From Brevinematales bacterium (GTDB lineage Bacteria; Spirochaetota; Brevinematia; Brevinematales; JAOACQ01): a DNA stretch of 64,000 nt. Below are positions 14,785 to 42,066 of the stretch, one piece after another. Position numbers and translations under genes: made by a program. Numbering within the stretch: the first letter of the stretch is position 1; each line of letters begins with the position of its first letter. The notes under the pieces were generated by a model. The model ran no database searches. It had not been told where the DNA came from and was given only the letters and a program-made list of their open reading frames with translations. The DNA is taken from positions 8,822 to 72,821 of the forward strand of contig JAOACQ010000103.1 in assembly GCA_026417755.1 (NCBI GenBank), read 5' to 3'.

Positions 14785-16935
14785 TTATTCTGAATGAGTA
14801 ATAACCCTTTCAACATCTATTATAAAAGCAATATCTCCATTGCCTATTATAGTAGCAGCAGAAATACCATAAGTTTTAACCAGTCTATTGTTTAGTGGTT
14901 TAATAACTATATCTTGCTCCCCAATCACATTATTAACTATAAGCCCAAAATTTTTATCCTTTGATTTTACAACAATACAATAATTTTTTTCAATTTCCTC
15001 GATAGAAATTTTTTTGTGATAGAAAAATTCTTCGAGGAAAATCACAGGAACAAGATTTTCTCTTAAAAATATCATTTTCTTTCCATTGATATCCTTGAAA
15101 TCATTCTTTGAAACCACTATGGTTTCTTCTATAGAAGCAATAGGAACAAAATAATGAATCTCATTAACAACCACAAGTAGCCCTTGAATAATAGCTAATG
15201 TCAATGGGAGTCTTACAACTATTCTAGAACCTTTATTTTTAGCAGTATAGAAACCTACATTCCCACCCATTTCTTCAATCTTCTTCTTTACCACATCCAT
15301 GCCGACTCCTCTACCTGATATTTCTGTAACCTGCTTTGCAGTAGAAAATCCAGGTAAAAAGATGAGGGCAAGAAGCTCTTTTTGAGTCATTTTTTCCACA
15401 ACTTCTCTAGGAAATATTCTACTATCTATAGCTTTTTTTCTCAAGGCATCAAAATCAACCCCTCTTCCGTCATCCATCGCCTCAATTACTATACTATCAC
15501 CTTCATGATATGCTTTAAGCACAATCCTTCCTTTTGCTGGTTTACCGAGTTTAAGCCTTTCTTCCGTTGGCTCTATACCATGATCAAGAGAATTTCTGAT
15601 AATGTGGATCAAAGGATCAAAAATATCATCAACCATACTTTTATCTATCTCTGTTTCAACCCCTTCTATAAGAAGTTCAACATCTTTCTTCATCTTTTCT
15701 GCCATATCCCTCACAAGTCTTGGAAATCTCGAAAAGACTGTCTGGATAGGAACCATTCGCAAATTCATAACATTTTCCTGTAGTGAAGAAGAAATCCTTG
15801 ATAACTTCTGGACAGTCTCCCTATAATCATCAAAAACCTGAAACATTTCAATGAATGAATCAAGCAAAATTGCATTTTTTTCTAATTTTATTTTTTCATC
15901 ATTATCAAGATTAAGTTTTAAGACTCCACTCAAGAATGGTTTAAGAATATTTTTTAAAACTACCTCGGCCTTTCCCATCTTATCATAGATCTGAGATAAA
16001 GAAGCCTTTGTAATAACAAGTTCCCCCATAAGATTTAATAGCTCATCAACCTTCCAGCTTTCTACTCTTATAGTTGATGTTGCCCTCTTTGTTTCTTCAA
16101 CATCTTTTTGTTCCTTTTGGGGTGAACTATCAAGCGGTTTTTGAAGATTACTAACTGAAAAACCATCTAACATTTCTTTTGTCAGGAGCAAAATATCAAT
16201 TTTATTAAGCATTTCTGTTAAAAAAGTCTTATCCATTATTTCTTTTTCAGATTTTTCAGTGGCAAAAACAAAACATACCTCTTTAGCAAAAACACTTTCT
16301 AAATAGTTAAGAGTTGGTTCCATTTTGATAATCTCACCAATATCATTTAAGAGAGCATAAACCTGAAATGGTGCAACATCCTTCATTTCATATTGTTCGT
16401 TAAAGTCATAGCAAAGGACATAGACTTTTTTACCTTTTTCAATTAATTCATGAATATTTTCTATTTCAAAATTTGTAAGTTTTGACTTAATAAGTTCTGT
16501 CGATAGCTTACTAGTCTTCGTAGAAGAAGAAACCATCCCCGAAGGTGATTTTTCTCCTTTTAAATACTTAAAAAACTCAATAAGTTTTAGCTGCCTATCC
16601 GAGGAATATACATTTCCTTTTTCTCTTTCAACCAGCATTTTTTCTATTTCATCTTTAGCCTCTAAAAAATTTGAGATATATTCAGATGTAATAGCTAAGT
16701 TCTTTTTTCTCACCATATCCATAACATCTTCAAAAAGATGGGTAAAATCCTTAATTTCACTAAAACCAACCGTAGCCGCACCACCCTTAATAGTATGAAC
16801 ACTTCTAAAAATTTCATTGATAGACTTTTGATTTTCTGGTTCTTTCTCCAAAACCAATAGACTTTCCTCAAGAGAAGAAACAAGCTCAAAAGCCTCTGAC
16901 AAAAAATCTTTTACTAATTCTTCGGATAAATCCAT
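14785..16935 (-). CDS. cheA: Chemotaxis histidine kinase CheA
   Basis: HPt site SVHTIKGGAATVGF, dimerisation domain, HATPase blocks (IIRNSLDHGIE, DDGRGVD, GRGVGMDVV) and a C-terminal CheW-like domain. I prefer the ATG at 16935 (GGGG 6 nt upstream). The track's TTG at 16947 is the alternative. Confidence 0.9.
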   Translation of the reverse strand: MDLSEELVKDFLSEAFELVSSLEESLLVLEKEPENQKSINEIFRSVHTIKGGAATVGFSEIKDFTHLFEDVMDMVRKKNLAITSEYISNFLEAKDEIEKMLVEREKGNVYSSDRQLKLIEFFKYLKGEKSPSGMVSSSTKTSKLSTELIKSKLTNFEIENIHELIEKGKKVYVLCYDFNEQYEMKDVAPFQVYALLNDIGEIIKMEPTLNYLESVFAKEVCFVFATEKSEKEIMDKTFLTEMLNKIDILLLTKEMLDGFSVSNLQKPLDSSPQKEQKDVEETKRATSTIRVESWKVDELLNLMGELVITKASLSQIYDKMGKAEVVLKNILKPFLSGVLKLNLDNDEKIKLEKNAILLDSFIEMFQVFDDYRETVQKLSRISSSLQENVMNLRMVPIQTVFSRFPRLVRDMAEKMKKDVELLIEGVETEIDKSMVDDIFDPLIHIIRNSLDHGIEPTEERLKLGKPAKGRIVLKAYHEGDSIVIEAMDDGRGVDFDALRKKAIDSRIFPREVVEKMTQKELLALIFLPGFSTAKQVTEISGRGVGMDVVKKKIEEMGGNVGFYTAKNKGSRIVVRLPLTLAIIQGLLVVVNEIHYFVPIASIEETIVVSKNDFKDINGKKMIFLRENLVPVIFLEEFFYHKKISIEEIEKNYCIVVKSKDKNFGLIVNNVIGEQDIVIKPLNNRLVKTYGISAATIIGNGDIAFIIDVERVITHSE

Positions 16936-16947
16936 AAATAACCCCAA

Positions 16948-19869: not shown

Positions 19870-21474
19870 ATGCGATTAAATAAGTTTTTTATCCTTTTTT
19901 TCTTCTTTTCTGCCTGTATTAACGTAAGTAAATTCTCAAAAGAAGATATTGAACAAGAAAAAAATATTATAAAATCAAAAATCGCAAAGGAAGAGATTCT
20001 ATATATTCAAGTTAAAGAATTTAAAAATGAATCTCAAGTTAAAGAAATAGATTACCTTTCCAATGCAATACCAGATTTAATAATTCAATATCTATTTTTG
20101 TTTGAAAACGAAAATGCATATTTACCATTGAAAATAAAATACACAAATATTGCTAGTGATATTTCAAAAAATTCTTATTTTTTCAAATACCTAACAAACA
20201 TTGTAACTACCATAACCCAGTTTTCAACCAACATTTCCAGAGAAATTTCAAACATTGAATTAATTGAGACAAATATATTAAAGCAAAAAAACAAAAATAT
20301 TCTCGAGTTTAAAACAATCACAAACATACTAACAAATGAAGTTACAAATATTAAGATTTCCAATATAATGGAAACAAACCTCCCAATCCTTACAGAGAAA
20401 AATTTTTATCTTATGATATCAAATGAATTCCCTGAATTAGAAAATGAAATAACAGCCTTAAAAATTGTTCTTTCTAAAACAGAAATAACAAACTCAATTT
20501 ATTCTTCAATTATTACAGGAAAATACAAAATCTCAAAAGATTCAAAAGCAAGTGGACCAAAAATGTTAGAAATTGAAATTAACACCACAAATTTTTTAAC
20601 TTCAACAAACGTAACTAGTTATAAGATAACTTCGAGAGAAGATACCCTCAATGAAAATATAATATTATTTATCAAACCTTACAGAAAATTTATACTTAAT
20701 AAACCCACTGGCGATTTGATAATTAATTCTTCACCAGAAGAGGTAGATGTATACATAAATGGGATCTTCCTTGGCAAAACACCATTATATTTTCCATCTA
20801 TAGAAAGCAAAGCCCATAAAATAACCTTTTCAAAAGAAGGCTATAAAAGAACCACAATGAAATATATCATACAGGAAAACAAAACAAACCTTATCTTTTA
20901 TGATCTTGAAGAAAATAAAACCGGTGGGAAAATAAAAATTGACTCAACCATCTCCAATTCAAGAGTTTTCATAAACTCCATCTATAAAGGTAAAACACCT
21001 TTAACAGTTTCAAATCTCACTTTATTTGATACTCATAGAGTTGTGGTTTACCCGCCAGACACAAATTTAAGTCCCTTTTATTATAACTTCATCTTAAATA
21101 AGGCGGATGAAGATATAGAAATAAACGCTTCATTTAAAACACAAATTGGAAACACTGAAACATTTAAAAAAACCATGTGGGGTTTAAGTTTCTTTTCGTG
21201 GGGCCTTACTCTCACTTTTGTTGGTCTTGATGTATATAACCATTACCTATCAGAATATCACAAAGATCAGTATTATTCCTATAAAAAAACAGAAGATAAC
21301 TATTATTACCAGTATTATGATTATATGAGTAAGATTTTTTATAATTACTTTTTATTTTCCACAATGTTTTCAATGGGTATGACTGCTTTAGCACTTAACT
21401 CGGAAGATATATATATCGGAATATATCAGTTAGACAACAAAACTCTTTTAGCAACAGTAAATTTGAGATTTTGA
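19870..21474 (+). CDS. PEGA-domain lipoprotein with C-terminal membrane/Tyr-rich segment
   Basis: 534 aa with lipobox FFSAC. Two PEGA-like units (INSSPEEVDVYINGIFLGKTPL...ITFSKEGYK and IDSTISNSRVFINSIYKGKTPL). C-terminal hydrophobic helices flank a YYSYKKTEDNYYYQYYDY stretch. Confidence 0.65.
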   Translation: MRLNKFFILFFFFSACINVSKFSKEDIEQEKNIIKSKIAKEEILYIQVKEFKNESQVKEIDYLSNAIPDLIIQYLFLFENENAYLPLKIKYTNIASDISKNSYFFKYLTNIVTTITQFSTNISREISNIELIETNILKQKNKNILEFKTITNILTNEVTNIKISNIMETNLPILTEKNFYLMISNEFPELENEITALKIVLSKTEITNSIYSSIITGKYKISKDSKASGPKMLEIEINTTNFLTSTNVTSYKITSREDTLNENIILFIKPYRKFILNKPTGDLIINSSPEEVDVYINGIFLGKTPLYFPSIESKAHKITFSKEGYKRTTMKYIIQENKTNLIFYDLEENKTGGKIKIDSTISNSRVFINSIYKGKTPLTVSNLTLFDTHRVVVYPPDTNLSPFYYNFILNKADEDIEINASFKTQIGNTETFKKTMWGLSFFSWGLTLTFVGLDVYNHYLSEYHKDQYYSYKKTEDNYYYQYYDYMSKIFYNYFLFSTMFSMGMTALALNSEDIYIGIYQLDNKTLLATVNLRF

Positions 21475-28122: not shown

Positions 28123-28152
28123 TAATGAAATCTTTTTTGAGGAGGAGTGGTT

Positions 28153-28743
28153 ATGTTAAGATTTTTTTCGGCTATTTTAACGTTAACATTATTATTGGCA
28201 TGCGGCCCTGAAACCAAAAAAGCTGTATCAAAAGAAGAAACAAAGCCAGCAGTAGAAACCATCTTAATAAGTGACTTTGAAAACAATTCTAAAGAATTGA
28301 TTACCTATGCTGGACCTCAAAGCAAAGTAACTGCAGTCTACTCTACTGAAAAGGCCAAAAGTGGAAAACAATCCGCAAAAGTAACTCACCAGACCAAGGA
28401 TTGGGCAGGAGCACTTATAACTGTAGATGAAGGAAAAGGAGATTGGACTGGAATGAAAACATTCAGAATGTGGGTTTTTGGTTCAAATTCTAAAGCCAGC
28501 TTTAATATTGATCTTGAAGATGCAAAAAAAGAACAATTCAGATATACTATTACAGATGACTTTGAAGGATGGAAAGAGTTTGTAATCCCCCTTTCTGATT
28601 TTAAATGGAGGACAGATTGGCAGGCTTCTGATGCCGTTTTAAACAAAAAATATGATTATCCAATGATGACAGTTCAATTTTGCACAGCAACTCTTGGGAA
28701 TTTTACACTTTACTTTGATGATATAGTCATAGATAGCAAATAA
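28153..28743 (+). CDS. CBM-like (CBM11/CIA30-fold-like) lipoprotein, paralog 1
   Basis: ATG at 28153 follows the SD GGAGGAG (28141-28147). Lipobox LLAC. DFE...W-G...DWTGMKTFRMWVFG...DDFEGWKEFVIPLSDF...YFDDIVID is a beta-sandwich CBM-type pattern. Confidence 0.65.
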   Translation: MLRFFSAILTLTLLLACGPETKKAVSKEETKPAVETILISDFENNSKELITYAGPQSKVTAVYSTEKAKSGKQSAKVTHQTKDWAGALITVDEGKGDWTGMKTFRMWVFGSNSKASFNIDLEDAKKEQFRYTITDDFEGWKEFVIPLSDFKWRTDWQASDAVLNKKYDYPMMTVQFCTATLGNFTLYFDDIVIDSK

Positions 28744-28892: not shown

Positions 28893-29489
28893 ATGTTTAA
28901 GAACACGTGTTTAGTGGCTCTTCTTTTAATGGCAATTACATTAGCTAGTTGTGGGGATGATAAGAAAACAGTTGCCAAAGCAGAAACAAAACCTATTGCA
29001 GAGCAAATTCTCATAACTGACTTTGAAGACCCTTCTTTACAAATTAACATTTTCTCAGGTCCACAAAGTAAAATTGATGCAAAGATCTCATCAGAAAAAG
29101 TAAAGAATGGAAAAGCTGCTGCAAGAGTTGAACACAATACAAAAGACTGGAGTGGTGCAGTAGTTGTTCCACCAGCAGAAAAGAAAGACTGGACTGGAAT
29201 GAAAACATTCAGAATGTGGGTTTTTGGTTCAAATTCTAAATCTCAGCTCAACATTGACATTCCAGATGCAAAGAAAGAATTTTTCAGATATTCATATGTT
29301 GATGATTTTGAAGGCTGGAAAGAACTTGTTATTCCTCTTTCTGATTTTAAGTCAAGAACTGACTGGCAACCTTCAGATGCTTCTATAAACAAGAAAATGG
29401 ATTTCCCTATTCAAGAAATCCAGTTCTGCACATCTGGTTTCGGAAAAGGCGTTCACTATTTTGATGACATTATTATCGATAGTAAGTAA
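28893..29489 (+). CDS. CBM-like (CBM11/CIA30-fold-like) lipoprotein, paralog 2
   Basis: 198 aa with lipobox LASC. It is collinear with paralog 1 over its full length and includes an identical WTGMKTFRMWVFGSNSK block. Confidence 0.65.
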   Translation: MFKNTCLVALLLMAITLASCGDDKKTVAKAETKPIAEQILITDFEDPSLQINIFSGPQSKIDAKISSEKVKNGKAAARVEHNTKDWSGAVVVPPAEKKDWTGMKTFRMWVFGSNSKSQLNIDIPDAKKEFFRYSYVDDFEGWKELVIPLSDFKSRTDWQPSDASINKKMDFPIQEIQFCTSGFGKGVHYFDDIIIDSK

Positions 29490-29982: not shown

Positions 29983-30393
29983 TTATTCCTTAGTCCAGTC
30001 AATATTTTTTATACCCTGCCAGGCAGCCTTAACAGTTTGATCTCTATGCCTATCACTATATAAGACAATCCTTAAAAAGGCAGGGAAATTAGATGGTAGC
30101 CTTTCTTTATCAAGAATCTTCACAAGTTCTTCTGCAATCACATCGTCATAAAAAGCAATCTGATCATTTTCTTTGAAACCAGGATTATCATAATTATATG
30201 TTAGCAAATCTACAACCATAGAAATAACTCTTTTCCTATCAGGAAATTTTTGAAAAACTACTATAGCTTTCTTTTTATTTTCATATTCTCCAATTCTCTT
30301 TAATACTCTATAGGCATTAAGGAGCTCATCATCATTCGCATAAATGCTTGAAAAAGAAAATGCTAAAATTATAAAAAATATCTTCTTAAACAT
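29983..30393 (-). CDS. Secreted HEAT-like repeat protein (short paralog)
   Basis: 136 aa with a signal peptide. The C-terminus SDRHRDQTVKAAWQGIKNIDW is paralogous to that of the next gene. Confidence 0.55.
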   Translation of the reverse strand: MFKKIFFIILAFSFSSIYANDDELLNAYRVLKRIGEYENKKKAIVVFQKFPDRKRVISMVVDLLTYNYDNPGFKENDQIAFYDDVIAEELVKILDKERLPSNFPAFLRIVLYSDRHRDQTVKAAWQGIKNIDWTKE

Positions 30394-30397
30394 CTTA

Positions 30398-31126
30398 TTA
30401 CCACTTTAGTTTCTTCATTGCTTCCCAGGCAGCCTTTACTGTTTCATCCCTGTGTCTATCAGGATTCATAACAGTCTGAAGTAAAACAGGAAAAGCTCTA
30501 GGATCTCCAATATCTCCAAGAGTTTCAATTATAGCCTGAGCAACCCTATCATCTTCAAATCTTCTTGTATCCTCTTCCTTAAACTTTGCTCTTGAGGCTC
30601 CATATTGATTTCTGAGTAAATCCACAAGTTTAGGAACAATCCCTTTTACATCTCCAAGAAGTGGGAGAGCCTTTGCAGCAGCAATTCTTGGATGTAAAGA
30701 GGTGTCTCTCTCTATAATATTCACAAGAGTTTCGATATATTTATTATCCTTACTTTTAACAAGATCATTTATTGCCAAAACTCTTGCGTCTGGTGAGACA
30801 ATTATACTTTTCTGTTCGGTTTTCATATAACTTCTTACATCCCAAGTAATAATTTCTTCAAGAAAATCATATTTTTTTGAAGGGACATTCGTAATTTTTG
30901 TAACAAGCATTACAATCTTAAACTGAACATCAAAACTTGCCTTCTTACCAATCGAGTCATTAAATTCCTTTTTCAAATAAGGTAATACATTATCAGGTAA
31001 AGCTAAATCCTTAGGAATAGCTTCAACAGGAACATTTGGACTTAAAAAAGACCCCAAAACATTTTCTTGAGAAAAAACGCTTCCAGCAAGCAGTGTAAAC
31101 AATACAATGAAAATAATCCTTCTCAT
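30398..31126 (-). CDS. Secreted HEAT-repeat protein
   Basis: 242 aa with a signal peptide. HEAT/PBS-lyase-like units (RIAAAKALPLLGD, AIIETLGDIGDPRAFPVLL). C-terminus NPDRHRDETVKAAWEAMKKLKW. Confidence 0.65.
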   Translation of the reverse strand: MRRIIFIVLFTLLAGSVFSQENVLGSFLSPNVPVEAIPKDLALPDNVLPYLKKEFNDSIGKKASFDVQFKIVMLVTKITNVPSKKYDFLEEIITWDVRSYMKTEQKSIIVSPDARVLAINDLVKSKDNKYIETLVNIIERDTSLHPRIAAAKALPLLGDVKGIVPKLVDLLRNQYGASRAKFKEEDTRRFEDDRVAQAIIETLGDIGDPRAFPVLLQTVMNPDRHRDETVKAAWEAMKKLKW

Positions 31127-32342: not shown

Positions 32343-33575
32343 ATGAAACAACAAACTATAACTATACAAGATATTATTTTTTATTTCATATCAATCTCTT
32401 TTTGTTTTACTTTAATCTCCGCCATTTTTATAGGTTTTCAGATATTAGCAATATTATTTTTCATTATTTATATTATAAAAAATAAGATAAAAATTGATTT
32501 TGAAAGGATTGATTACTTACTTGTTATTTTCTTCCTTACGGTTTTTATCAAAAGTTTTTTTGTAAAAGATATTACAACTTCTTTACTTTCTTCTTTTTTG
32601 ATACCTTTTTATATCTTTGTATTTATTTTTTATAAGAATTTTCTAATCGATGAAGAAAGATTCAAGAATATTGTAAAATCTATAGCTATTGGCTTAATAA
32701 TCTTTAATTCTTTTTCTTTATTTCACTATTTTATAATAAGAAAAGATATTGTTTTTTCAATTTTTTCTGTTTCAATCAAAATACCACATTCATATAGTGG
32801 AACAATTTTTTCTCCAATTTCATCAATATTGTCACATCCTACTGGTGCTGGCATTATTCTTGGTATATTAATATCTATAATATTGTTTTATTTATCTCAA
32901 AATATTAAAAATATTTCTTTAAGAGAAAGATTTTTTTTTATTACTGCAACTATTCTTGGTATTATAACCCTATTTTTCACATTTTCAAGAAGCGGCTATA
33001 TAATACTTTTTTTATCAATTGTTTTTATTATTTTTAAGTTACGAAAGCCTACTTTAATAATTCCTATTTTAACTATTATAACAATTTTTACAATTTTAAA
33101 TCCCGCTGACAAAATAAAAAGTTCAATTATAAATCTTAAAGATTCATACAATGTTGGTCCGCGTCTTCTTCAATATGAAATCGCAACAAAATTATTTAAA
33201 CAAGCCCCTATCACAGGAATTGGCCTAATGCAATTTAAGAAAACTTATAAAAATTCTTATAACTCTCCAGAATATAATCATTATCCATCTTATTATTTTG
33301 ATAATGTAGATTATGTTCACAATAATTATCTTGCACTACTTACAGAAACAGGCATTATAGGTTTTTTATTATTTTATACCTTCTTAATTTTTAAATTTAT
33401 AAAAAACATCAAAAGACTCAAAGATAACAAGAATTTATTTAAAACATACGCTATTTTCATTATTTTGTGGTTCTTTATAGACTCAATTTTTAATGCACAT
33501 CTCTATGTTGCTCCGATAGGAATATTCTTATGGATATTTATAGGACTATCTGATAATATAAAAAGGGTGTCTTAA
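32343..33575 (+). CDS. O-antigen ligase/polymerase-family (Wzy_C) membrane protein
   Basis: 410 aa with ~10 TM helices. FTFSRSGYI follows a large loop, and HNNYLALLTETGIIGF is typical of the O-antigen ligase family. Confidence 0.7.
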   Translation: MKQQTITIQDIIFYFISISFCFTLISAIFIGFQILAILFFIIYIIKNKIKIDFERIDYLLVIFFLTVFIKSFFVKDITTSLLSSFLIPFYIFVFIFYKNFLIDEERFKNIVKSIAIGLIIFNSFSLFHYFIIRKDIVFSIFSVSIKIPHSYSGTIFSPISSILSHPTGAGIILGILISIILFYLSQNIKNISLRERFFFITATILGIITLFFTFSRSGYIILFLSIVFIIFKLRKPTLIIPILTIITIFTILNPADKIKSSIINLKDSYNVGPRLLQYEIATKLFKQAPITGIGLMQFKKTYKNSYNSPEYNHYPSYYFDNVDYVHNNYLALLTETGIIGFLLFYTFLIFKFIKNIKRLKDNKNLFKTYAIFIILWFFIDSIFNAHLYVAPIGIFLWIFIGLSDNIKRVS

Positions 33576-33588
33576 AGACACCCTTTTT
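33561..33588. terminator. Bidirectional intrinsic terminator with a stop codon in its loop
   Basis: A 12-bp stem pairs AAAAGGGTGTCT with AGACACCCTTTT around the loop TAA, which is the stop of the 32343 gene. A T5 run follows. The convergent gene stops at 33590. Confidence 0.65.
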
Positions 33589-33589
33589 A

Positions 33590-35881
33590 TTATCTTTGGA
33601 CTTTCAACATTGCTCCACTTGATATACCAAATACTCCCTCTTTATCTGCTACCACAGAAACAGAAGACTTTTTCTTTGTATCACTTGTCCACAAATTCTT
33701 TTTGGTTTCAATATCATAGGCATAAATCTTTCCACTTCTTGTCCCTACAAAAAGAGAATTTCCAGAGAGATAAGGTTGAGTTATTTTGTCATTAATTTGA
33801 ATTCTATTAACAATCTTACCACTTCCCAAACTAACAATTGTAACAACAGAAGAACTTTCACCACCTTTCGCAATAACAATATTTCCTCCACTTACAATTG
33901 GATCTATATCTGTCTTCTGTAACTCAGCAAGATTTACTTCCCATTTTTTGTTTCCATCCAAAGTAGAATAACCTTTAAGAACTCCACTACCTCTCACAAA
34001 TGTTACAACAGTATTATCATTTCCGACTAATGGATAAACAATTCTATCCTCATATGCTTTTACCCATTCTTCCTTTTTATTCTCTAAACTATAGCATACA
34101 AGATTGCCATTCTCAAGAGCATAGATAATCTTTTTCCCACCATCTATAACAAGAGGAGAAGCAAAAATCTGAGCAGAAAGTTTTATATTATCCAGAATCT
34201 CACCACTCTGACTTAAGATATAAATTCCATCTTTAAATGAGCTAACAAATATTTTATCACCATACATAACTGGATGTCCACCAAACTTCTGCCCACCTAC
34301 TTTCTCGTTTTTCCACAGTAACTTACCATTTAAATCATAAGCATATAAACCACCATCTTCAGCACCAACTACAAACATATTTCCACCAACAGCAACTTTG
34401 GTAAGCTGAATACCTGGTTTAACAGTCATCTTTTTAGTAAGAGTCCCGCTTAAATCAAAAATATAAACATTGTCAAGCGAAACAGTTATAATCTTTCCTT
34501 TATACAATACAGGCAAATAATCAAATTCATTTACATTAAGAGTAATTGATTTTTCCCAATCTATTGTTCCAGAAACAATCTTTGGTGTATCAATTTTAGC
34601 TATCTCTGAACCAACAGATGATACAGAACTTGAAGAAGCTACTTCAACAAGTTTTTGATTTAAGGTCGCTTCTATATTAAAATCTGCTGAGACATCATAC
34701 TCTTTTGCAAACATCTCAAATCCATCTTTTTCTATTCTTACGTTGATTTTTTTACCTTTTTGTATTAGCATCTCAAATGGAGTAATACCAACTTCTTTCC
34801 CATCAATAAAAACTTTTGCTTTATCTGGAACCGAACTAAAATTTATTTTAGAGGTTTCTCTCTTTTCAAGAATCTTATCTTCTGAAATAAGATTAAGTTT
34901 TTGTTCAGCTTCTTTACTAATCTGCCTCTTTTCTACAATTATAGCTGTGAAATCTTCAGCCTTTGAATCCTTTTTAGCGACCTCTGTTACAACCTTTTCC
35001 TGAATTTTAGTTGTTATATTTTCAGGTTTAGCCCCTTCCGACGCTGCCACCTCTTTAATGACTTCTTTAATAATGTTATCAACCTTTTCTATCTTTTCCT
35101 TCTTAAGGCCAACCTCTTCTCCAGCTCCAACTTCTACAGGCTTAACAACATTTTCCTTCAAAACTTCAGCTGTTTTATCATCAATTTTACCAGCTTCTCT
35201 TGCACTATCAATAGATTTAACAACAGGAACTACTTTAACCTTTCCTTCAGCCACAGAAACTTTTGTATCGCCATTTTCATCAACAGAAACAAAGAATTTT
35301 GTTCCTCTTACAGCAGCGACTGCTGATTCAGTATGAACCTCAAAAACTTCACCCTTTTCAAGTTTTTTAGGTTTTAGTGCCATCCCACCTTTTTCAAGTT
35401 TAAATTTTGATTGAACTTTGTTATCGTTATTTACAAGCGTAGCAAGTAAAACTTGTGAAGAAGGTTCAATTCTGAAGATACCTCTTTTCACCATCTGAAT
35501 TTCACAATATGATTCTTTCTCCGTCTTAATATTATCACCCATCTGTAAAATCTCTTCAACCTTAACCTTTTTCCAGTCAGAACTTCCAACCTTTTGTGCA
35601 TAAACATCCCCAACAACAGCAGAAACAATCAAAGCCTCACCCTTATCAATCTTATTCTGCTTAACAACAAGGGAATACTTTGAAACAAAAACAACCCCGA
35701 AAACAATTAATAATGAAAAAGCTGCAAGCCAAGCAAATAACTTAATTCCACCTTTTTTCTCAGACATATAACTACCCTCCTTCTTTTTTAAGAAATAGTT
35801 TTTCCAGACCTTTTCAAAATCTGGTGTTGAGTCAACATAAATGTTTGACTTCAAAAGAAACTCTAACTCCTTCTCATTCAT
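33590..35881 (-). CDS. Anti-sigma-like membrane protein: short cytoplasmic N-term, 1 TM, FecR domain, K/E-rich linker, PEGA domain, PQQ/BamB-like beta-propeller
   Basis: TM segment LFAWLAAFSLLIVFGVVFV. FecR-like IFRIEPSSQVLL...AAVRGTKFFV. PEGA block SSVPDKAKVFIDGKEVGITPF...IEKDGF. Repeated YAYD-x-G/T-K-x-LW propeller motifs. I prefer the ATG at 35881 (GGAGG 5 nt upstream); the track start at 35911 is the alternative. Confidence 0.65.
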   Translation of the reverse strand: MNEKELEFLLKSNIYVDSTPDFEKVWKNYFLKKKEGSYMSEKKGGIKLFAWLAAFSLLIVFGVVFVSKYSLVVKQNKIDKGEALIVSAVVGDVYAQKVGSSDWKKVKVEEILQMGDNIKTEKESYCEIQMVKRGIFRIEPSSQVLLATLVNNDNKVQSKFKLEKGGMALKPKKLEKGEVFEVHTESAVAAVRGTKFFVSVDENGDTKVSVAEGKVKVVPVVKSIDSAREAGKIDDKTAEVLKENVVKPVEVGAGEEVGLKKEKIEKVDNIIKEVIKEVAASEGAKPENITTKIQEKVVTEVAKKDSKAEDFTAIIVEKRQISKEAEQKLNLISEDKILEKRETSKINFSSVPDKAKVFIDGKEVGITPFEMLIQKGKKINVRIEKDGFEMFAKEYDVSADFNIEATLNQKLVEVASSSSVSSVGSEIAKIDTPKIVSGTIDWEKSITLNVNEFDYLPVLYKGKIITVSLDNVYIFDLSGTLTKKMTVKPGIQLTKVAVGGNMFVVGAEDGGLYAYDLNGKLLWKNEKVGGQKFGGHPVMYGDKIFVSSFKDGIYILSQSGEILDNIKLSAQIFASPLVIDGGKKIIYALENGNLVCYSLENKKEEWVKAYEDRIVYPLVGNDNTVVTFVRGSGVLKGYSTLDGNKKWEVNLAELQKTDIDPIVSGGNIVIAKGGESSSVVTIVSLGSGKIVNRIQINDKITQPYLSGNSLFVGTRSGKIYAYDIETKKNLWTSDTKKKSSVSVVADKEGVFGISSGAMLKVQR

Positions 35882-35983
35882 TATTTCCTCCATAATTAAA
35901 TATTTTTTCATTTTTCATTTTAAGTTCAAACTTCTAATTATAAATACTTTAACATAAAAAATTTTGAGAAGTTTTTAAAAAAT

Positions 35984-36553
35984 TTATTTTTTTAGTTCTT
36001 TTAAAATAATTTGATATGCCTTTGAAAGCCGATTATGGAGTTGTCTTATTGAGATATTACTCTCTTTAGCTATATCCTCAAGACTCATATCTGAGAAATT
36101 TTTTAGTAAAACTACTTTTTTTAATTTTTCAGGAAGTTTATTAATAATAACTTCTAAACTCTCCTTTACTGTGAAATTTTCAATATCATTTTTAGCTTCT
36201 GGAATATCTATTTCTTCAAATTTTTCTATATTTATAAACCTATTTTTCTTTAAATATTTATATCTATCCTTAATGGTATTTATTAATATTCTGAAAAACC
36301 AAGGTTTAAACAGCTTTCCCCTTTCAAAAGTTCTATCTCTCATCATAAATTTAAGAAAAGACTCCTGTACAACATCTTCAGCATCCTGTTTACTTAATCC
36401 ATAATACCTTGATATATTATAACACTGTAAATAATATCTGTTGTATAATTCTTCATAGTATGTCTTTATAACCTGAGCATAACTACTCTCATCTTTTTTA
36501 AGTTCACAAATTCGGTAAAGAATTTCTTCATCACTCATACTATTAACAGACAT
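35984..36553 (-). CDS. ECF-type RNA polymerase sigma-70 family factor
   Basis: 189 aa. Region 2 (DAEDVVQESFLKF, FKPWFFRILINTIKD) and a region 4 HTH (MSLEDIAKESNISIRQLHNRLSKA). Confidence 0.85.
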   Translation of the reverse strand: MSVNSMSDEEILYRICELKKDESSYAQVIKTYYEELYNRYYLQCYNISRYYGLSKQDAEDVVQESFLKFMMRDRTFERGKLFKPWFFRILINTIKDRYKYLKKNRFINIEKFEEIDIPEAKNDIENFTVKESLEVIINKLPEKLKKVVLLKNFSDMSLEDIAKESNISIRQLHNRLSKAYQIILKELKK

Positions 36554-36562
36554 AAAACTTCC

Positions 36563-37378
36563 TTAAAACCAAAAAGAAACTTTTATCCACAAAGAATAAT
36601 CATAAATTTTCTTTTCAAAAATTATCGGCAATAAAAATCCTAAACTAAATTTAAAAAATTTTCCAGTTTTTAAAGAATTTTCTAAATAAACCTCTAATGA
36701 ATCTGGATATAAAACATCTTTAGAAATATTGTAAGTATAGCTTAAAGAAACTTCCGGTAAGTATAAGAAAATAGTCTCATTAAACTTAAATAATTCTATT
36801 TCAACATCGGAATTTAAACTTAACTTTAAACGATCAAAACCCGGATTAAAACTTACAATCCCCTCATCAGAATAATTATCAACGCAATATAACAAATTAA
36901 GCCATAACATAAAAGGTTTAAGATAATAAGAAAAATTAAAACCAGGATAAAAACCAAAAGTTCCTCGCGAAAAAGGGAAAAATGAATACCTATTTCCCAT
37001 TATAAATTTATATGAATCCTCTTTTACAACACCTGTAGGAAACTTGATAAAGGTTAAAAAAGAAAACCTCCATAATTCAAAAAAATCTCTTTCAAGTAAA
37101 AACTTTGCATTAAGTTCCACATCTCCTATTATTCCCTCTCCTAAAAAAGAATTGAAAAATATATAGGGCAATCTGAAACCAATTAAAAATCTATCATTTA
37201 CTCCATAATCAAAAGAAAAATATGAAAAATTTAAGTTGTAATTACTCAAAAAAAAAGAATCAACTCCAAAAGAAGAACGAACCTCCCCATTATTAAGATA
37301 ATAAGGGGTTTCTTCATAAGAATATAAAAAAAGATTTGTCCAAATTATAAAGAAAAAGGAGAGCAAAAAAACTCTCAT
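36563..37378 (-). CDS. Putative outer-membrane beta-barrel protein
   Basis: 271 aa with a signal peptide. It is aromatic- and Gly-rich with alternating strands and ends in ...IKVSFWF. Confidence 0.5.
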   Translation of the reverse strand: MRVFLLSFFFIIWTNLFLYSYEETPYYLNNGEVRSSFGVDSFFLSNYNLNFSYFSFDYGVNDRFLIGFRLPYIFFNSFLGEGIIGDVELNAKFLLERDFFELWRFSFLTFIKFPTGVVKEDSYKFIMGNRYSFFPFSRGTFGFYPGFNFSYYLKPFMLWLNLLYCVDNYSDEGIVSFNPGFDRLKLSLNSDVEIELFKFNETIFLYLPEVSLSYTYNISKDVLYPDSLEVYLENSLKTGKFFKFSLGFLLPIIFEKKIYDYSLWIKVSFWF

Positions 37379-37395
37379 ACTCTCCTTATTCCTTT

Positions 37396-37752
37396 TTAAA
37401 CTTTAATATGTTGTTTTGCAATTTCGATATATTTAAGCATTGCAGATGGATCTTCTATACAAAGATTTGAAAGTGTTTTTCTATTTATAGCAACATTTGC
37501 CTTTCTTAAACCTTCTATAAACCTATTATAGTTTAAACCATGTTCCCTCACAAATGCATTTATTCTTACAATCCAGAGATTTCTGAAATCTCGCTTCCTA
37601 TTTTTCCTGTCAATAGTCGCATATCTTAAGGCATGCATTACTGCTTCTTTTGCAGCCTTAATTCTATTTTTTCTTGCACCATGATAACCCTTTGCTAATT
37701 TTAAAACCTTTTTTCTTCTCGCCCTACTTGCGACTGTATATCTTGCTCTCAT
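37396..37752 (-). CDS. rplT: 50S ribosomal protein L20
   Basis: 118 aa. MRARYTVASRARRKKVLKLAKGY... is canonical L20. Confidence 0.95.
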   Translation of the reverse strand: MRARYTVASRARRKKVLKLAKGYHGARKNRIKAAKEAVMHALRYATIDRKNRKRDFRNLWIVRINAFVREHGLNYNRFIEGLRKANVAINRKTLSNLCIEDPSAMLKYIEIAKQHIKV

Positions 37753-37772
37753 TTCATTCCTCCTTTAAAATA

Positions 37773-37970
37773 TTAAGCGTATGGCAGCATCCTTTTGATT
37801 CTATAAACATCCCCGCTGAAAACTACCTCTTTACCTGAAAGATTTCTTTTATTCTTTCGCGACTTATGAGTTAATAAGTGCCTTTTATAAGCCTTATTCC
37901 TCATGATTTTTCCTCCACCAGAAACACTAAACCTTTTTGCAGCTGATTTATGTGTCTTTATTTTTGGCAT
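37773..37970 (-). CDS. rpmI: 50S ribosomal protein L35
   Basis: MPKIKTHKSAAKRF... is a canonical L35 N-terminus. ATG at 37970 with GGAGG 6 nt upstream. The track ORF is over-extended to 38018. Confidence 0.9.
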   Translation of the reverse strand: MPKIKTHKSAAKRFSVSGGGKIMRNKAYKRHLLTHKSRKNKRNLSGKEVVFSGDVYRIKRMLPYA

Positions 37971-37986
37971 AAAATTCCTCCAAAAT

Positions 37987-38508
37987 TTATTTTTTCTGTT
38001 TTGCTGGTCCCAAAACAAGGGTTATATTTTTACCTTCCATTTTAGCCGGTTTCTCAACAACACAACTTCCTGCAAGCTCATTAACAACCTTTTCAGTAAG
38101 TTGAAAACCTAGATCTATATGGGACAACTCTCTCCCTCTGAATCTTACAGTTATTTTCACCTTATCGCCTTTTGTAAGAAACTCTTTCATCTGTTCAATT
38201 CTGTAAGCAAAATCATGATTATCAATCCAGGGTCTTAACTTAAACTCTTTAATTTCTACAACTTTCTGTTTCTTCTTTGCTTCTTTTGCCTTCTTCTCCT
38301 TTTGATAGAGAAACTTACCATAGTCAATAAGTCTACATACAGGAGGCTCAGCATTAGGAGAAACCTCCACAAGATCAACTCCAAGTTCTTCAGCTTTTTG
38401 TAAAGCCTCTTTAATAGAAAGAACTCCAAGCTGCTCTCCATCCTCCCCAATCACTCTCACCTCTTTAGATTTAATTTCTTCATTAACTCTGTAATTTTCG
38501 GTAGCTAT
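37987..38508 (-). CDS. infC: Translation initiation factor IF-3 (non-canonical ATA start)
   Basis: The conserved IF-3 N-terminus RVNEEIKSKEVRVIGEDGEQLGV extends upstream of the track's GTG (38460). The only in-frame start candidate upstream of that block and after the in-frame TAA is ATA at 38506-38508, 5 nt after AAGGAGG (38514-38520). This gives 174 codons. Confidence 0.85.
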   Translation of the reverse strand: MATENYRVNEEIKSKEVRVIGEDGEQLGVLSIKEALQKAEELGVDLVEVSPNAEPPVCRLIDYGKFLYQKEKKAKEAKKKQKVVEIKEFKLRPWIDNHDFAYRIEQMKEFLTKGDKVKITVRFRGRELSHIDLGFQLTEKVVNELAGSCVVEKPAKMEGKNITLVLGPAKQKK

Positions 38509-38539
38509 AAATTCCTCCTTAAAATTTTTACATTATATT

Positions 38540-40435
38540 TTACAATCTCTTTTGATTTTCTTCAACTATCTTCTTTAAAATTTCTTCCCATTTATGAAGT
38601 CCTTCTTCTCCCCTATCCCTATGTCTTATTGAAACACTGTTTGTAGAGGCTTCCTTCTCACCCACAACGAACATATAAGGAATTTTTAACATTTGTGCAC
38701 TTCTTATCTTATATCCAAGTTTTTCGTTACTTAAATCAATCTCGCTTCTTATCTTTGCCTTTCTTAAATGATTATTGATATCAATCGCATACGAATTAAA
38801 TTTGTCTGACACTGGGATTATAACTACCTGCAAAGGTGAAAGCCAGAGGGGAAATTTTCCTCCATAATGCTCTATAAGTATCCCCATAAATCTCTCAATA
38901 CTTCCAAGAACAGCTCTATGAAGCATAATGACCCTGTGTTCTTTACCATCATCACCAATATAAGTTAAATCAAATCTTTCAGGTAAGTTCATATCAAGCT
39001 GTATAGTTCCACACTGGTGTGTTCTTCCTATCGCATCTTTAAGATGAAAATCTATTTTAGGCCCATAAAAAGCTCCATCACCTTCATTTATCTTATAATT
39101 TAACCCAAGCTCATCAAGTGCGTTTTTAAGCCCACTGGTTGCTATTTCCCACTGTTCATCTGTTCCCATAGATTTCTCAGGTCTTGTAGATAATTCAAGA
39201 CTATACTCAAAACCAAAGGTTTTATAAACCTCATCAATAAGTTGCAAGAGCTCTATAACGCTTGACTGTAAAGCCTCTGGAGAGGTAAAAATATGTGCAT
39301 CATCCTGCGTAAAACCCCTAACCCTGAAAAGGCCTTGAAGAACACCACTTCTCTCATATCTATGAACTTTTCCAAATTCCGCAATCTTAAGTGGTAACTC
39401 TCTATAAGAATGAATACTTTCTTTATAATAAAGTATACCTCCTGGGCAATTCATTGGCTTAATAGCATAAACTTCCTCATCCTTTTCGGTGAAAAACATA
39501 TTTTCTCTGTAATTATCATAATGCCCGGATTGTTTCCATAATTCAACTCTCAACATAGTCGGTGTTTCTATCTCAATATAATTTCTTTCACGATGTTTTT
39601 CCCTCATAAACTCAATAAGTAAATTTTTAAAAATTAAACCTTTTGGTTTCCAGAAAGGTAATCCCGGTCCTTCGTCATGAAAACTGAACAATTCAAGTTC
39701 TTTGCCAAGTTTCCTGTGATCTCTTTTTTTTGCTTCCTCAAGATTGTTAAGGTAAGTATTTAAACTCTCTTTATCAGAAAAAGCTGTCCCATAAACTCTT
39801 GTCATCGAATCATTCTTCTCATTTCCTCTCCAGTAAGCTCCAGAAACGCTTAACAACTTAAATGCCTTAAGCATTCCGGTAAAAGGCAAATGTGGCCCTC
39901 TACACAGATCAAAAAAATCCCCCTGTTTGTAAATAGAAACTTTATCACCTTCGATCTCTTCTATCAATTCAAGTTTATACTTCTGACCAGCCTTTTTGAA
40001 TAGAGTCTTTGCCTCTTCTTTTGATAACTCTTCCCTCACTATTGGCAGATTTTCAGCTACAATCTTTTTCATCTCTTCTTCTATTCTTTGAAGATCTTCC
40101 TCTGAAATTTTAGCCTCTGTAACTACATCATAATAAAATCCATCTTTAATAGCTGGCCCAACTCCAAACTTAGCATCAGGATAAATTCTTAAAATAGCCT
40201 GAGCCATAATATGAGAAGCTGAGTGTCTTAAAATCTCTAAACCCTCTTCACTATCAGAAGAAATAAAATTTAATTCACCACTACAATCTATCTCTTTTGA
40301 AAGATCATAAAGCTCATTATTAAATCTTGCGGCCACAATTTTGCTTTTTTGTATATCAAGAAGTTTTAATATTTCATATATTTTAACCGGTTTTTCAAAT
40401 TCAACACTCTTATCTAATAATTTAACACTAAACAT
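38540..40435 (-). CDS. thrS: Threonine--tRNA ligase
   Basis: 631 aa with TGS, editing (HSASHIMAQA), class II catalytic (FRVRGFTQDDAHIF, GTIQLD) and anticodon-binding domains. Confidence 0.95.
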   Translation of the reverse strand: MFSVKLLDKSVEFEKPVKIYEILKLLDIQKSKIVAARFNNELYDLSKEIDCSGELNFISSDSEEGLEILRHSASHIMAQAILRIYPDAKFGVGPAIKDGFYYDVVTEAKISEEDLQRIEEEMKKIVAENLPIVREELSKEEAKTLFKKAGQKYKLELIEEIEGDKVSIYKQGDFFDLCRGPHLPFTGMLKAFKLLSVSGAYWRGNEKNDSMTRVYGTAFSDKESLNTYLNNLEEAKKRDHRKLGKELELFSFHDEGPGLPFWKPKGLIFKNLLIEFMREKHRERNYIEIETPTMLRVELWKQSGHYDNYRENMFFTEKDEEVYAIKPMNCPGGILYYKESIHSYRELPLKIAEFGKVHRYERSGVLQGLFRVRGFTQDDAHIFTSPEALQSSVIELLQLIDEVYKTFGFEYSLELSTRPEKSMGTDEQWEIATSGLKNALDELGLNYKINEGDGAFYGPKIDFHLKDAIGRTHQCGTIQLDMNLPERFDLTYIGDDGKEHRVIMLHRAVLGSIERFMGILIEHYGGKFPLWLSPLQVVIIPVSDKFNSYAIDINNHLRKAKIRSEIDLSNEKLGYKIRSAQMLKIPYMFVVGEKEASTNSVSIRHRDRGEEGLHKWEEILKKIVEENQKRL

Positions 40436-40469
40436 ATTTTTCTCCGAAAAGTAAAAAACATAATTTTTA

Positions 40470-40498
40470 ATTATAACAAAAAATAGAAAAAAAGTAAA
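40470..40498 (-). promoter_or_regulatory. Candidate extended -10 promoter for thrS (TTTACT-17-TGTTATAAT)
   Basis: On the minus strand, TATAAT is at 40475-40470 and is preceded by TGT. TTTACT is at 40498-40493. Confidence 0.35.
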
Positions 40499-40569
40499 AT
40501 TAATTCAATGTAAAATCAAAAGTTGAGTATAATAATTTTTTACTTTATAATAAATACAGGAGTTTAAAT

Positions 40570-42066
40570 ATGAATATAAAAAATGAAATAACAAATTATA
40601 TTAAAGAAAAAGAGATAAATTTCGCTTTTGTTTCCTATCTTTGTAATCTTTACGAAGTATCGAAAGTCTCAAAAGAAATAGCAAAAAACATCGTCCTTGA
40701 ACTAGAATCACAAAGAAGTAATCTTAAATTAATAGCAAGCGAAAACTATTCATCCCTTGCAACACAGCTTGCTATGGGCAACCTACTTACAGATAAATAT
40801 GCAGAGGGGTATCCATTCCATAGATTTTACGCTGGCTGTGAAAATGTGGACGAAATAGAAAATATAGCTGTAGAAGAAGCAAAAAAACTTTTTGGTGCAG
40901 AGCATGCCTATGTTCAGCCTCATAGTGGAGCTGATGCAAATATGGTTGCTTATTGGGCAATTCTTTCAACACGTATCGAAGTTCCAGTGCTTAAAAAACT
41001 TGGAGAAACAAACCTTTCAAAGTTAAACCAATCAGATTGGGAAAATTTAAGAAAAGAAATGAGCAATCAAAGACTTTTAGGTTTAGACTATTACTCTGGT
41101 GGGCATTTGACTCACGGCTACAGAAATAATGTCTCTGCGAGAATGTTTGAAGCCTATTCTTACTCTGTGAATAAAGAAACTGGCTTACTTGATTATGATG
41201 AAATAGAAAAAATAGCTAAAGAAGTAAAACCTTTAATTCTACTTGCTGGTTACAGTGCTTACCCACGCAAAATCAACTTTAAGAAAATGAAAGAAATAGC
41301 TGATAAGGTTGGTGCAGTATTAATGGTTGACATGGCTCATTTTGCGGGGCTAGTTGCCGGTGGTGTCTTCAGTGGAGAATATAATCCTGTGATTTATGCA
41401 GATGTTGTAACTACAACAACTCACAAAACCCTAAGAGGCCCAAGAGGTGGTCTTGTTCTCTGCAAAAAAGAGTTTGCCGAAGCAGTAGATAAAGGTTGCC
41501 CTCTTGTTCTTGGTGGTCCACTACCACATGTTATGGCAGCAAAAGCAGTCGCATTAAAAGAGGCTAATTCACCTGAATTTAAGTCCTATGCAAAAAAGAT
41601 AGTCGAAAATTCTCAGACACTTGCACAGGAATGTATAAATCTTGGAATGAAAGTAGCTACAGGAGGAACTGATAACCATCTTTTCCTCATAGATGTTTCA
41701 AGTTTTGCTCTTACTGGAAGACAGGCAGAAAGTGCTTTGAGAGAGTGCGGAATAACGCTAAACAGAAATTCACTACCATTTGATCCAAATGGTCCTTGGT
41801 ATACTAGTGGCCTAAGGATTGGAACACCCGCAATTACAACACTTGGTATGGGCAAAGAAGAAATGAAGGAAATAGCTTCAATAATAAAGATGGTTCTCGA
41901 TAATGTGAAACCTTTGGTAGTAAATGGAGAAAAAAGTAAGGCAAAATATGAACTAAACGAAACCGTTAAAAAAGAAGCCAAAGAGAAAGTCAAAAAACTT
42001 TTATCACAATACCCTGTTTATCCTGAACTCGATCTTGAAATTATGAAAAAGTTATTTATTCAATAA
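40570..42066 (+). CDS. glyA: Serine hydroxymethyltransferase (long form)
   Basis: 498 aa containing LIASENY, SGGHLTHG and TTTTHKTLRGPRGG (PLP lysine). It has N-terminal, internal and C-terminal extensions relative to the usual ~415-aa enzyme. Confidence 0.9.
   Translation: MNIKNEITNYIKEKEINFAFVSYLCNLYEVSKVSKEIAKNIVLELESQRSNLKLIASENYSSLATQLAMGNLLTDKYAEGYPFHRFYAGCENVDEIENIAVEEAKKLFGAEHAYVQPHSGADANMVAYWAILSTRIEVPVLKKLGETNLSKLNQSDWENLRKEMSNQRLLGLDYYSGGHLTHGYRNNVSARMFEAYSYSVNKETGLLDYDEIEKIAKEVKPLILLAGYSAYPRKINFKKMKEIADKVGAVLMVDMAHFAGLVAGGVFSGEYNPVIYADVVTTTTHKTLRGPRGGLVLCKKEFAEAVDKGCPLVLGGPLPHVMAAKAVALKEANSPEFKSYAKKIVENSQTLAQECINLGMKVATGGTDNHLFLIDVSSFALTGRQAESALRECGITLNRNSLPFDPNGPWYTSGLRIGTPAITTLGMGKEEMKEIASIIKMVLDNVKPLVVNGEKSKAKYELNETVKKEAKEKVKKLLSQYPVYPELDLEIMKKLFIQ

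Follow-up and report, generated by a model that had tools for sequence, protein, structure and literature searches.

What might an extracytoplasmic function (ECF) sigma factor be doing directly behind a ribosomal protein operon, next to a large membrane protein that ends in a beta-propeller? This question is raised by a stretch of 64,000 nucleotides (the window) on contig JAOACQ010000103.1 of the Brevinematales metagenome-assembled genome (MAG) GCA_026417755.1, phylum Spirochaetota. The whole module lies on the minus strand, where the genes thrS, infC, rpmI and rplT are followed by a gene for a protein that we call X, the sigma factor gene, and a gene for what we call the big protein. A first-pass annotation had proposed that the big protein is a FecR-type anti-sigma-like protein whose propeller may itself be the sensor, that X may be its outer-membrane partner, and that read-through from rplT ties expression to growth rate. 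Pairs of ECF sigma and anti-sigma factors are one of the main routes of signalling in bacteria, in which the input domains define what the cell senses, and ECF modules are normally self-contained. On balance, we consider it probable that the module is an ECF sigma signalling unit specific to Brevinematia, passed on by vertical inheritance and appended at the 3' end of thrS-infC-rpmI-rplT. That the big protein regulates the sigma factor, possibly including positive action of the kind that FecR exerts, is the answer we favour to a similar degree from the sequences.

The gene block behind rplT

Features of the block are given below in the direction of transcription, with window coordinates and strand.

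38540..40435, minus: thrS, threonyl-tRNA synthetase, 631 amino acids, first gene of the conserved block
37987..38460, minus: infC, initiation factor IF3 (IF3_N and IF3_C at the equivalent position in relatives)
37773..37970, minus: rpmI, ribosomal protein L35, which starts MPKIKTHK (Ribosomal_L35p at the equivalent position in relatives)
37396..37752, minus: rplT, ribosomal protein L20 (Pfam Ribosomal_L20, E 1e-39; TIGR01032, E 2.6e-42)
37349..37394, minus: hairpin predicted by RNA folding to bury both the Shine-Dalgarno sequence and the start codon of gene X
36563..37378, minus: gene X, 271 amino acids, a secreted all-beta protein and probably an outer-membrane barrel of about 12 strands
35984..36553, minus: sigma factor gene, ECF (group 4) by its Sigma70_r2 and r4_2 domains, 189 amino acids
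35882..35983, minus: AT-rich spacer between the sigma and big genes, peculiar to the window clade; the two genes overlap in relatives
33558..33590, no strand assigned: perfect 15-bp hairpin from the terminator scan, common to the convergent big gene and a Wzy_C-like gene

The order thrS-infC-rpmI-rplT-(X)-sigma-big is present in all 17 distinct loci whose gene context was read, namely the window (WIN) and 16 others (L010, L003/L020, L001/L011, L006, L007/L017, L008, L009, L012-L016, L018, L019, L090 and L092), and the flanks outside the block vary. Because the layout recurs in 16 other distinct loci, it is far beyond chance, and it persists at 37% identity of the sigma factor (L092) and 34-38% identity of the big protein. 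The big protein belongs to a tiny family, of which an indexed search recovered about 18 orthologs. Sigma/anti-sigma gene pairs typically overlap, and the sigma and big genes do so by 1-20 nucleotides in 13 of the 17 loci. An AT-rich spacer of 90-129 nucleotides occurs only in the window clade (WIN, L010 and L003), and the spacer of L092 has 43 nucleotides. Gene X overlaps rplT (by ATGA or by 1 nucleotide) in six loci, including L090, and lies 16-17 nucleotides from it in the window clade and in L092. Four loci (L006, L013, L016 and L018) carry no X, and there the sigma gene follows rplT by 100-374 nucleotides. A second, partial match to the big-protein profile in L016 (9453-10577, E 2e-117), directly downstream of the full-length gene, may mean that the gene was duplicated in tandem or is split.

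Coordinates, gaps and gene sizes in the window are as the first-pass annotation had given them. A gap of 17 nucleotides (AAAGGAATAAGGAGAGT), which includes the Shine-Dalgarno sequence of X, separates rplT from X, and 9 nucleotides separate X from the sigma gene. The big open reading frame (ORF) ends at 33590 and has two candidate starts: ATG 35911, which lies 72 nucleotides after the sigma gene and gives 773 amino acids, and ATG 35881, which lies 102 nucleotides after it and gives 763. The latter has GGAGG 6 nucleotides upstream and fits the ortholog N-termini 'MNEKELE'. The big protein, the sigma factor and X are each 100% identical to Brevinematales MAG entries, and the product at the thrS position in relatives has tRNA_SAD, tRNA-synt_2b and HGTP_anticodon domains.

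From the arrangement of the sequences, co-transcription of the module with rplT is the best reading. The 17-nucleotide gap has no room for a terminator, and a simple terminator scan found no credible terminator between rplT, X, the sigma gene and the big gene in any locus, including the interval between rplT and the barrel gene that the first-pass annotation had singled out in this respect. Together with the ATGA overlaps in relatives, this makes the proposed co-expression plausible. Because no terminator lies between rplT and the module, the basal level of the module would track ribosomal-protein expression.

A predicted RNA structure at the start of X suggests how translation might be coupled as well. 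The hairpin has a minimum free energy of -19.9 kcal/mol on 66 nucleotides (z -3.4; 1 of 200 shuffles as good). Its 5' arm begins immediately behind the rplT stop codon and is a purine run that contains the Shine-Dalgarno sequence of X; its 3' arm corresponds to codons 5-10 of X, in the signal-peptide region. L010 and L003 retain the stem, though their loop differs. The structure would be opened by a ribosome that finishes translating rplT and is probably a device for translational coupling of X to L20; in other clades the ATGA overlap probably does the same. A terminator-like match at 37376-37359, at the start of X, was rejected as a terminator, as it is part of this longer Shine-Dalgarno-sequestering hairpin.

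At the other end of the module, the hairpin at 33558..33590 is likely a bidirectional terminator that closes the operon. Converging on the big gene from the opposite side is a gene (32343-33575, plus strand) for a polytopic membrane protein of the Wzy_C (O-antigen ligase-like) type. The stretch made up of 32343-33575 and 33558-33590 has the lowest GC content of the profiled region (0.23). An Rfam scan of positions 33000-41000 found no known leader or small RNA, and the sub-threshold matches resembling small RNAs reflect only the terminal hairpin.

The sigma factor, the big protein and X

Judged by its sequence, the 189-residue protein is an ECF (group 4) sigma-70 factor, as the first-pass annotation had recognized. 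Pfam finds Sigma70_r2 (E 2.8e-12) and Sigma70_r4_2 (E 5.4e-10) and no other domains, the score against TIGR02937 (ECF superfamily) is 81.2 bits at a cut-off of 42.9, and the best matches in the PDB are SigW, AlgU/sigma-H, RpoE and CnrH. The best NCBIfam subfamily is TIGR02985 (87.6 bits, under its cut-off of 126), which we take to be a Bacteroides family often paired with FecR-like proteins. Identity to E. coli FecI is 21%.

The big protein has a more elaborate architecture, which is listed below in residue numbers of the 773-residue frame. The structural assignments draw on an AlphaFold (AF2) model that was built on 18 orthologs and has a mean predicted local distance difference test (pLDDT) score of 80.

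35747..35881, minus: cytoplasmic N-terminal segment, residues 11-55, from the ortholog alignment
35672..35746, minus: single transmembrane helix, residues ~56-80, from hydrophobicity and AF2
35222..35635, minus: periplasmic FecR-type beta domain, residues 93-230, from Pfam FecR, pLDDT 85-90
35300-35305, minus: invariant Gly203-Thr204 within the FecR domain
34856..35218, minus: K/E-rich, mostly helical linker of 121 amino acids, residues 232-352, from composition and AF2
34658..34855, minus: PEGA domain, residues 353-418, from Pfam and AF2
33593..34573, minus: eight-bladed BamB/PQQ-like beta-propeller, residues 447-773, from Pfam, AF2 and Foldseek

The N-terminal segment carries a motif, LExLLKxNxFxDSxPDFxxVW ... 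MxEKKGG, that is conserved across orthologs; D27, F32 and K52 are nearly invariant, and M49 and E51 are invariant. Hydrophobicity identifies one membrane segment only (residues 58-76, within an AF2 helix spanning 56-89), in agreement with the single-pass protein of the first-pass annotation. The N-terminal flank of this helix is more positive than the C-terminal flank, which indicates an N-in topology. Beyond the membrane, Pfam FecR (PF04773) matches residues 126-226 over profile positions 1-97 with 60.4 bits against a cut-off of 24, and its E-value of 2.5e-16 is of the same order as that of E. coli FecR itself (2.8e-17). G203 and T204 do not vary among 18 orthologs and align to G181-T182 of E. 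coli FecR, the reported self-cleavage site whose cutting opens a proteolytic cascade that finishes with RseP (PMC8144685).

The remainder of the protein also conforms to the first-pass description, in that Pfam, AlphaFold and Foldseek all uphold the assignment of FecR, PEGA and BamB/PQQ-like propeller domains. The K/E-rich linker, which had been put at about 120 amino acids, is 36% K+E compared to 22% for the whole protein, has AF2 helices at residues 233-340, and differs in length between orthologs. PEGA is matched at residues 356-418 (E 3.5e-9) and is modelled as a beta-sandwich with pLDDT of about 85; ortholog P0018 has a repeat-rich insert in its place. A Ser-rich disordered stretch leads to the propeller, in which Pfam detects PQQ_2 (E 4e-20) and AF2 builds eight four-strand blades with pLDDT >90. 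The YAYD-x-GK-LW repeats that had been noted in this region correspond to motifs at residues 523 and 730. The top Foldseek matches of the propeller are BamB structures (8orr and 3prw; E 7e-17, target template-modelling (TM) score 0.70-0.72). We rejected the candidate that the big protein is a true BamB, based on scores of 62.5 versus 285.2 bits for TIGR03300 and 42.8 versus 423 bits for NF008351, and on the architecture, as the propeller is fused C-terminally to a transmembrane protein that is no lipoprotein. PEGA recurs in this genome: a second PEGA protein of 534 amino acids is encoded at 19870-21474 (plus strand), with two copies of the domain (E 2e-18).

Protein X is likely an outer-membrane barrel. 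It has a Sec signal peptide (N-terminus MRVFLLSFFFIIWTNLFLYS...) and a C-terminus ending ...KVSFWF, in which the terminal F or L is conserved among orthologs. The AF2 model is all-beta with low confidence (pLDDT 55.6, predicted TM-score 0.53), and its Foldseek matches are outer-membrane barrels only, with FapF, PcoB and the COG4313 channel 4rl8 on top (TM-score ~0.5); we presume that these are all 12-stranded. The description 'OMP-like' (outer-membrane protein-like) in the first-pass annotation thus has the signal peptide, the SFWF end, the model and the barrel-only matches in its favour, although it gains nothing from family assignment: X matches no Pfam or NCBIfam model, its profile finds nothing in the PDB, and one of 31 family members weakly matches PF13557 (E 0.008). 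An exhaustive search returned 30 representatives among 1.84 billion proteins, and every X gene with context read sits between rplT and the sigma gene.

Sigma regulator or envelope protein

In the mechanism that we favour, the big protein would use its short cytoplasmic N-terminus to keep the sigma factor at the inner membrane. The FecR_C domain of classical FecR proteins contacts the TonB-dependent transducer. In place of FecR_C, the big protein has the linker, PEGA domain and propeller; the propeller/PEGA end would thus stand where classical FecR proteins have FecR_C, and it is therefore the likely input site. An envelope signal or ligand arriving there would trigger FecR-style sequential proteolysis that frees or activates the sigma factor, beginning with Gly-Thr self-cleavage, continuing with periplasmic trimming and ending with an intramembrane site-2 cut. 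X, as a small outer-membrane barrel translationally coupled to L20, would be an accessory, either as an outer-membrane partner or as a mere co-expressed product.

The anti-sigma function suggested in the first-pass annotation and the role of the barrel are what we infer from this arrangement. Gene overlap and co-inheritance provide contextual support for the former, but a number of observations weigh against it, beginning with the N-terminus. The N-terminal ~45 amino acids match no Pfam anti-sigma domain at E-values up to 10, a profile of the segment matched no PDB chain beyond noise, and hhalign against the N-terminus of E. coli FecR yields a probability of 0.08%, which is noise. The two short helices predicted for the segment are of low confidence (pLDDT <50). 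A jackhmmer search with the E. coli FecR N-terminus found no match in all collected loci, of which the proteobacterial FecR-domain loci gathered for comparison are not classical FecR proteins. Also, Pfam detects DUF4880 (PF16220) and FecR_C (PF16344) in E. coli FecR and neither in the big protein. The association with a sigma factor is likewise imperfect: ortholog P0008 (48% identity; L004/L005, 6001-8334) retains the N-terminal motif but is encoded by itself, divergently from mreBCD, and has neither rplT nor X nor a sigma gene in its vicinity, and no ECF sigma gene adjoins the transmembrane-anchored FecR-propeller paralogs L024 and L027 or the lipoprotein versions L021, L023 and L032. X, finally, is missing from four of the 17 loci.

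Promoter analysis adds to these objections. An autoregulatory promoter of ECF type (AAC -35 / CGT -10), for which the first-pass annotation had suggested a search, was not found near the sigma gene in the window or in related loci; only sigma-70-like elements were. In the window, the 9 nucleotides upstream of the sigma gene offer no promoter space. Some distant Brevinematia loci have a sigma-70-like TTAACA-N18-(CTGCC)GATAAT just upstream of the sigma gene, and L013, L016, L018, L007 and L015 share CTGCCGATA(A/T)(T/A) before it, with a TTAACA/TTGATA-like box 17-18 nucleotides upstream. To judge from these sequences, the element resembles promoters of the sigma-70 type more than those of ECF factors, so an internal promoter is possible in these loci. 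The spacer between the sigma and big genes of the window clade contains TATAAT-like strings. We rejected such promoter-like strings as evidence of autoregulation, since they comprise only the sigma-70-like element and AT-rich TATAAT strings.

A TonB-dependent transducer was sought as the customary partner of FecR. There is none among the large ORFs of the window, as the first-pass annotation had noted (the 720-residue ORF is CheA and the 680-residue ORF is LigA), and the gene tables of related loci contain no STN-bearing TonB-dependent transducer. The accompanying generalization, that FecR anti-sigma factors normally couple to such a transducer, requires qualification, because FecR-like regulators lacking TonB receptors have been described for Spirochaetes. 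In Leptospira, the N-terminal domain of the FecR-like LIC12756 binds the neighbouring ECF sigma factor LIC12757 and inhibits it, with no STN-bearing TonB receptor (PMC13118517, PMC12155086), and ECF242 members occur in Spirochaetes without TonB receptors (PMC7826278). As DUF4880, FecR_C and a partner transducer are all missing, the big protein is not to be filed as a FecR ortholog.

If the big protein does not regulate the sigma factor, it might be an inner-membrane-anchored envelope protein whose only link to the sigma factor and X is the common operon. It could then be a BamB-like factor in the assembly or tethering of outer-membrane proteins, or a surface or periplasmic scaffold like the leptospiral FecR-domain proteins, and the proteins of the module might be regulon products. 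The nearest relative of the propeller is BamB, a barrel gene is co-encoded, and the best NCBIfam matches of the FecR region are the Leptospira adhesins and lipoproteins Lsa33, Lsa19 and LipL45, not anti-sigma factors. The lack of anti-sigma homology at the N-terminus, the solitary P0008, and the lipoprotein and sigma-less paralogs with the same FecR-propeller combination fit such a role too. However, the sigma and big genes overlap in most loci and are co-inherited over deep divergence, a conserved cytoplasmic motif and a transmembrane helix are needless for a purely periplasmic factor, the BamB equivalog score is far below its cut-off, and the big protein is no lipoprotein. We regard such a non-regulatory envelope role as unlikely. 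A different mode of regulation, in which a membrane-released N-terminal fragment is needed to activate the sigma factor beyond sequestering it, in the manner of FecI/FecR, could account for the conserved GT motif of the FecR domain. In the published model, the N-terminal fragment of FecR released by RseP works together with FecI (PMC8144685), and full activation of LIC12757 in stationary phase needs full-length LIC12756 (PMC13118517). The sigma factor also finds its best subfamily model in TIGR02985, whose presumed pairing with FecR-like proteins is mentioned above. Yet the N-terminus is unrelated in sequence to DUF4880, and the sigma factor, distant from FecI, scores equally well against SigW/RpoE-type factors. 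We consider an obligatory activating fragment improbable.

The part played by X admits further readings. BamB binds the POTRA3 domain of BamA by beta-augmentation, and propellers of the BamB type thus have a known way of binding beta-barrel machinery. X and the propeller might accordingly form a dedicated sensing pair between outer membrane and periplasm, the barrel replacing the TonB-dependent transducer. The confinement of X to the rplT-linked module argues for a functional tie, and the rarity of its family and its barrel-only structural matches are consistent with such a pairing. X lacks an STN-like or periplasmic extension, however, its model is of low confidence, and it is lost in four lineages with intact sigma and big genes, so that the sigma/regulator pair can do without it; this does not support the barrel as an obligatory partner. 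We consider a dedicated pair doubtful, and X may simply be a product co-expressed with the module. More speculatively, the module might conduct growth-coupled surveillance of outer-membrane-protein assembly, with X as a sentinel barrel whose synthesis keeps pace with that of ribosomes through translational coupling to L20. The BamB-like propeller would watch a folding intermediate of X or the BAM machinery, and failure of X assembly would lead to Gly-Thr-primed proteolysis and release of the ECF sigma factor; FecR, PEGA and BamB-like parts would in this way make up a functional counterpart of sigma-E/RseA/DegS. This scheme is very improbable.

FecR-propeller proteins of similar length also occur in other Spirochaetota, and some are lipoproteins with a Cys lipobox. 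Since these proteins have no adjacent ECF sigma gene, the FecR-propeller unit predates sigma control or is independent of it. Elsewhere in the window, an apparent chemotaxis cluster includes a CheA histidine kinase (14785-16947, minus strand; Hpt, P2, H-kinase_dim, HATPase_c and CheW). Two adjacent 198-residue paralogs (28147-28743 and 28893-29489, plus strand) have CBM_11 domains, one with a weak match to FlaA (flagellar sheath). Two tandem secreted HEAT-repeat paralogs (29983-31126, minus strand; 136 and 242 amino acids) have in common the C-terminal ...HRD.TVKAAW..(M|I)K.

Relation to known systems

Literature searches on FecR/PEGA anti-sigma factors, on ECF factors with FecR and a beta-propeller, and on leptospiral ECF factors with FecR turned up no description of this architecture. 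If the reading we favour is true, the big protein is a FecR-type regulator whose transducer-binding end is replaced by a PEGA domain and a BamB-like propeller; the FecR family would then include one more case that is independent of TonB and, possibly, a new route for monitoring the outer membrane. The linkage to a ribosomal operon would be unusual for an ECF module, would make the capacity for envelope signalling depend on growth rate, and would span a whole class of barely studied spirochaetes.

In function, the closest analogy is to FecR-type cell-surface signalling without a TonB transducer, which has already been noted in Spirochaetes. The module shares with LIC_12757/LIC_12756 of Leptospira and with ECF242 the phylum Spirochaetota, an ECF sigma factor beside a protein that crosses the membrane once and has a FecR domain in the periplasm, and the absence of a TonB transducer. 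LIC_12756 has 350 amino acids, a 73-residue cytoplasmic domain and no PEGA domain or propeller, whereas the cytoplasmic part here is about 45 residues, the protein has an additional linker, PEGA domain and eight-bladed propeller, and the genes lie in the rplT operon behind a barrel gene.

The FecI-FecR-FecA system of E. coli and FoxI-FoxR-FoxA of Pseudomonas resemble the module in that the sigma gene is immediately upstream of the regulator gene and overlaps it (fecI and fecR overlap by 4 nucleotides), and in the single transmembrane helix, the PF04773 match of equal strength and the GT at the aligned self-cleavage site. Unlike these systems, the module has no DUF4880, FecR_C, STN-bearing TonB-dependent receptor or nearby iron-transport genes, and its sigma factor shares only 21% identity with FecI.

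In design logic, the module is closest to anti-sigma factors of the RsgI type, which sense through their C-terminal domains after autoproteolysis. SigI/RsgI of Clostridium thermocellum likewise combines a short N-terminal anti-sigma segment, one transmembrane helix and a periplasmic autoproteolytic domain, and in RsgI the C-terminal domain itself, rather than a separate receptor, binds the extracellular signal (PMC10328401). The parts are different, however, with RsgI_N and carbohydrate-binding modules there and FecR, PEGA and a propeller here; the host of SigI/RsgI is Gram-positive, and no homology was detected.

Single components also have known counterparts. The propeller shares eight PQQ-like blades with BamB, its best Foldseek match, but identity is only about 15%, and it is fused to a membrane-anchored FecR/PEGA protein. 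X is similar to FapF, PcoB and COG4313/Phenol_MetA_deg proteins in size (~250 mature residues), signal peptide, C-terminal aromatic residue and all-beta prediction, and differs in having no significant family membership and in belonging to a family confined to the rplT-linked module. Set against these systems, three features look new. An ECF sigma factor is attached to a protein with the architecture FecR-linker-PEGA-BamB-like propeller, X forms a private and very narrow barrel family, and the module is fused to thrS-infC-rpmI-rplT deeply and throughout the class.

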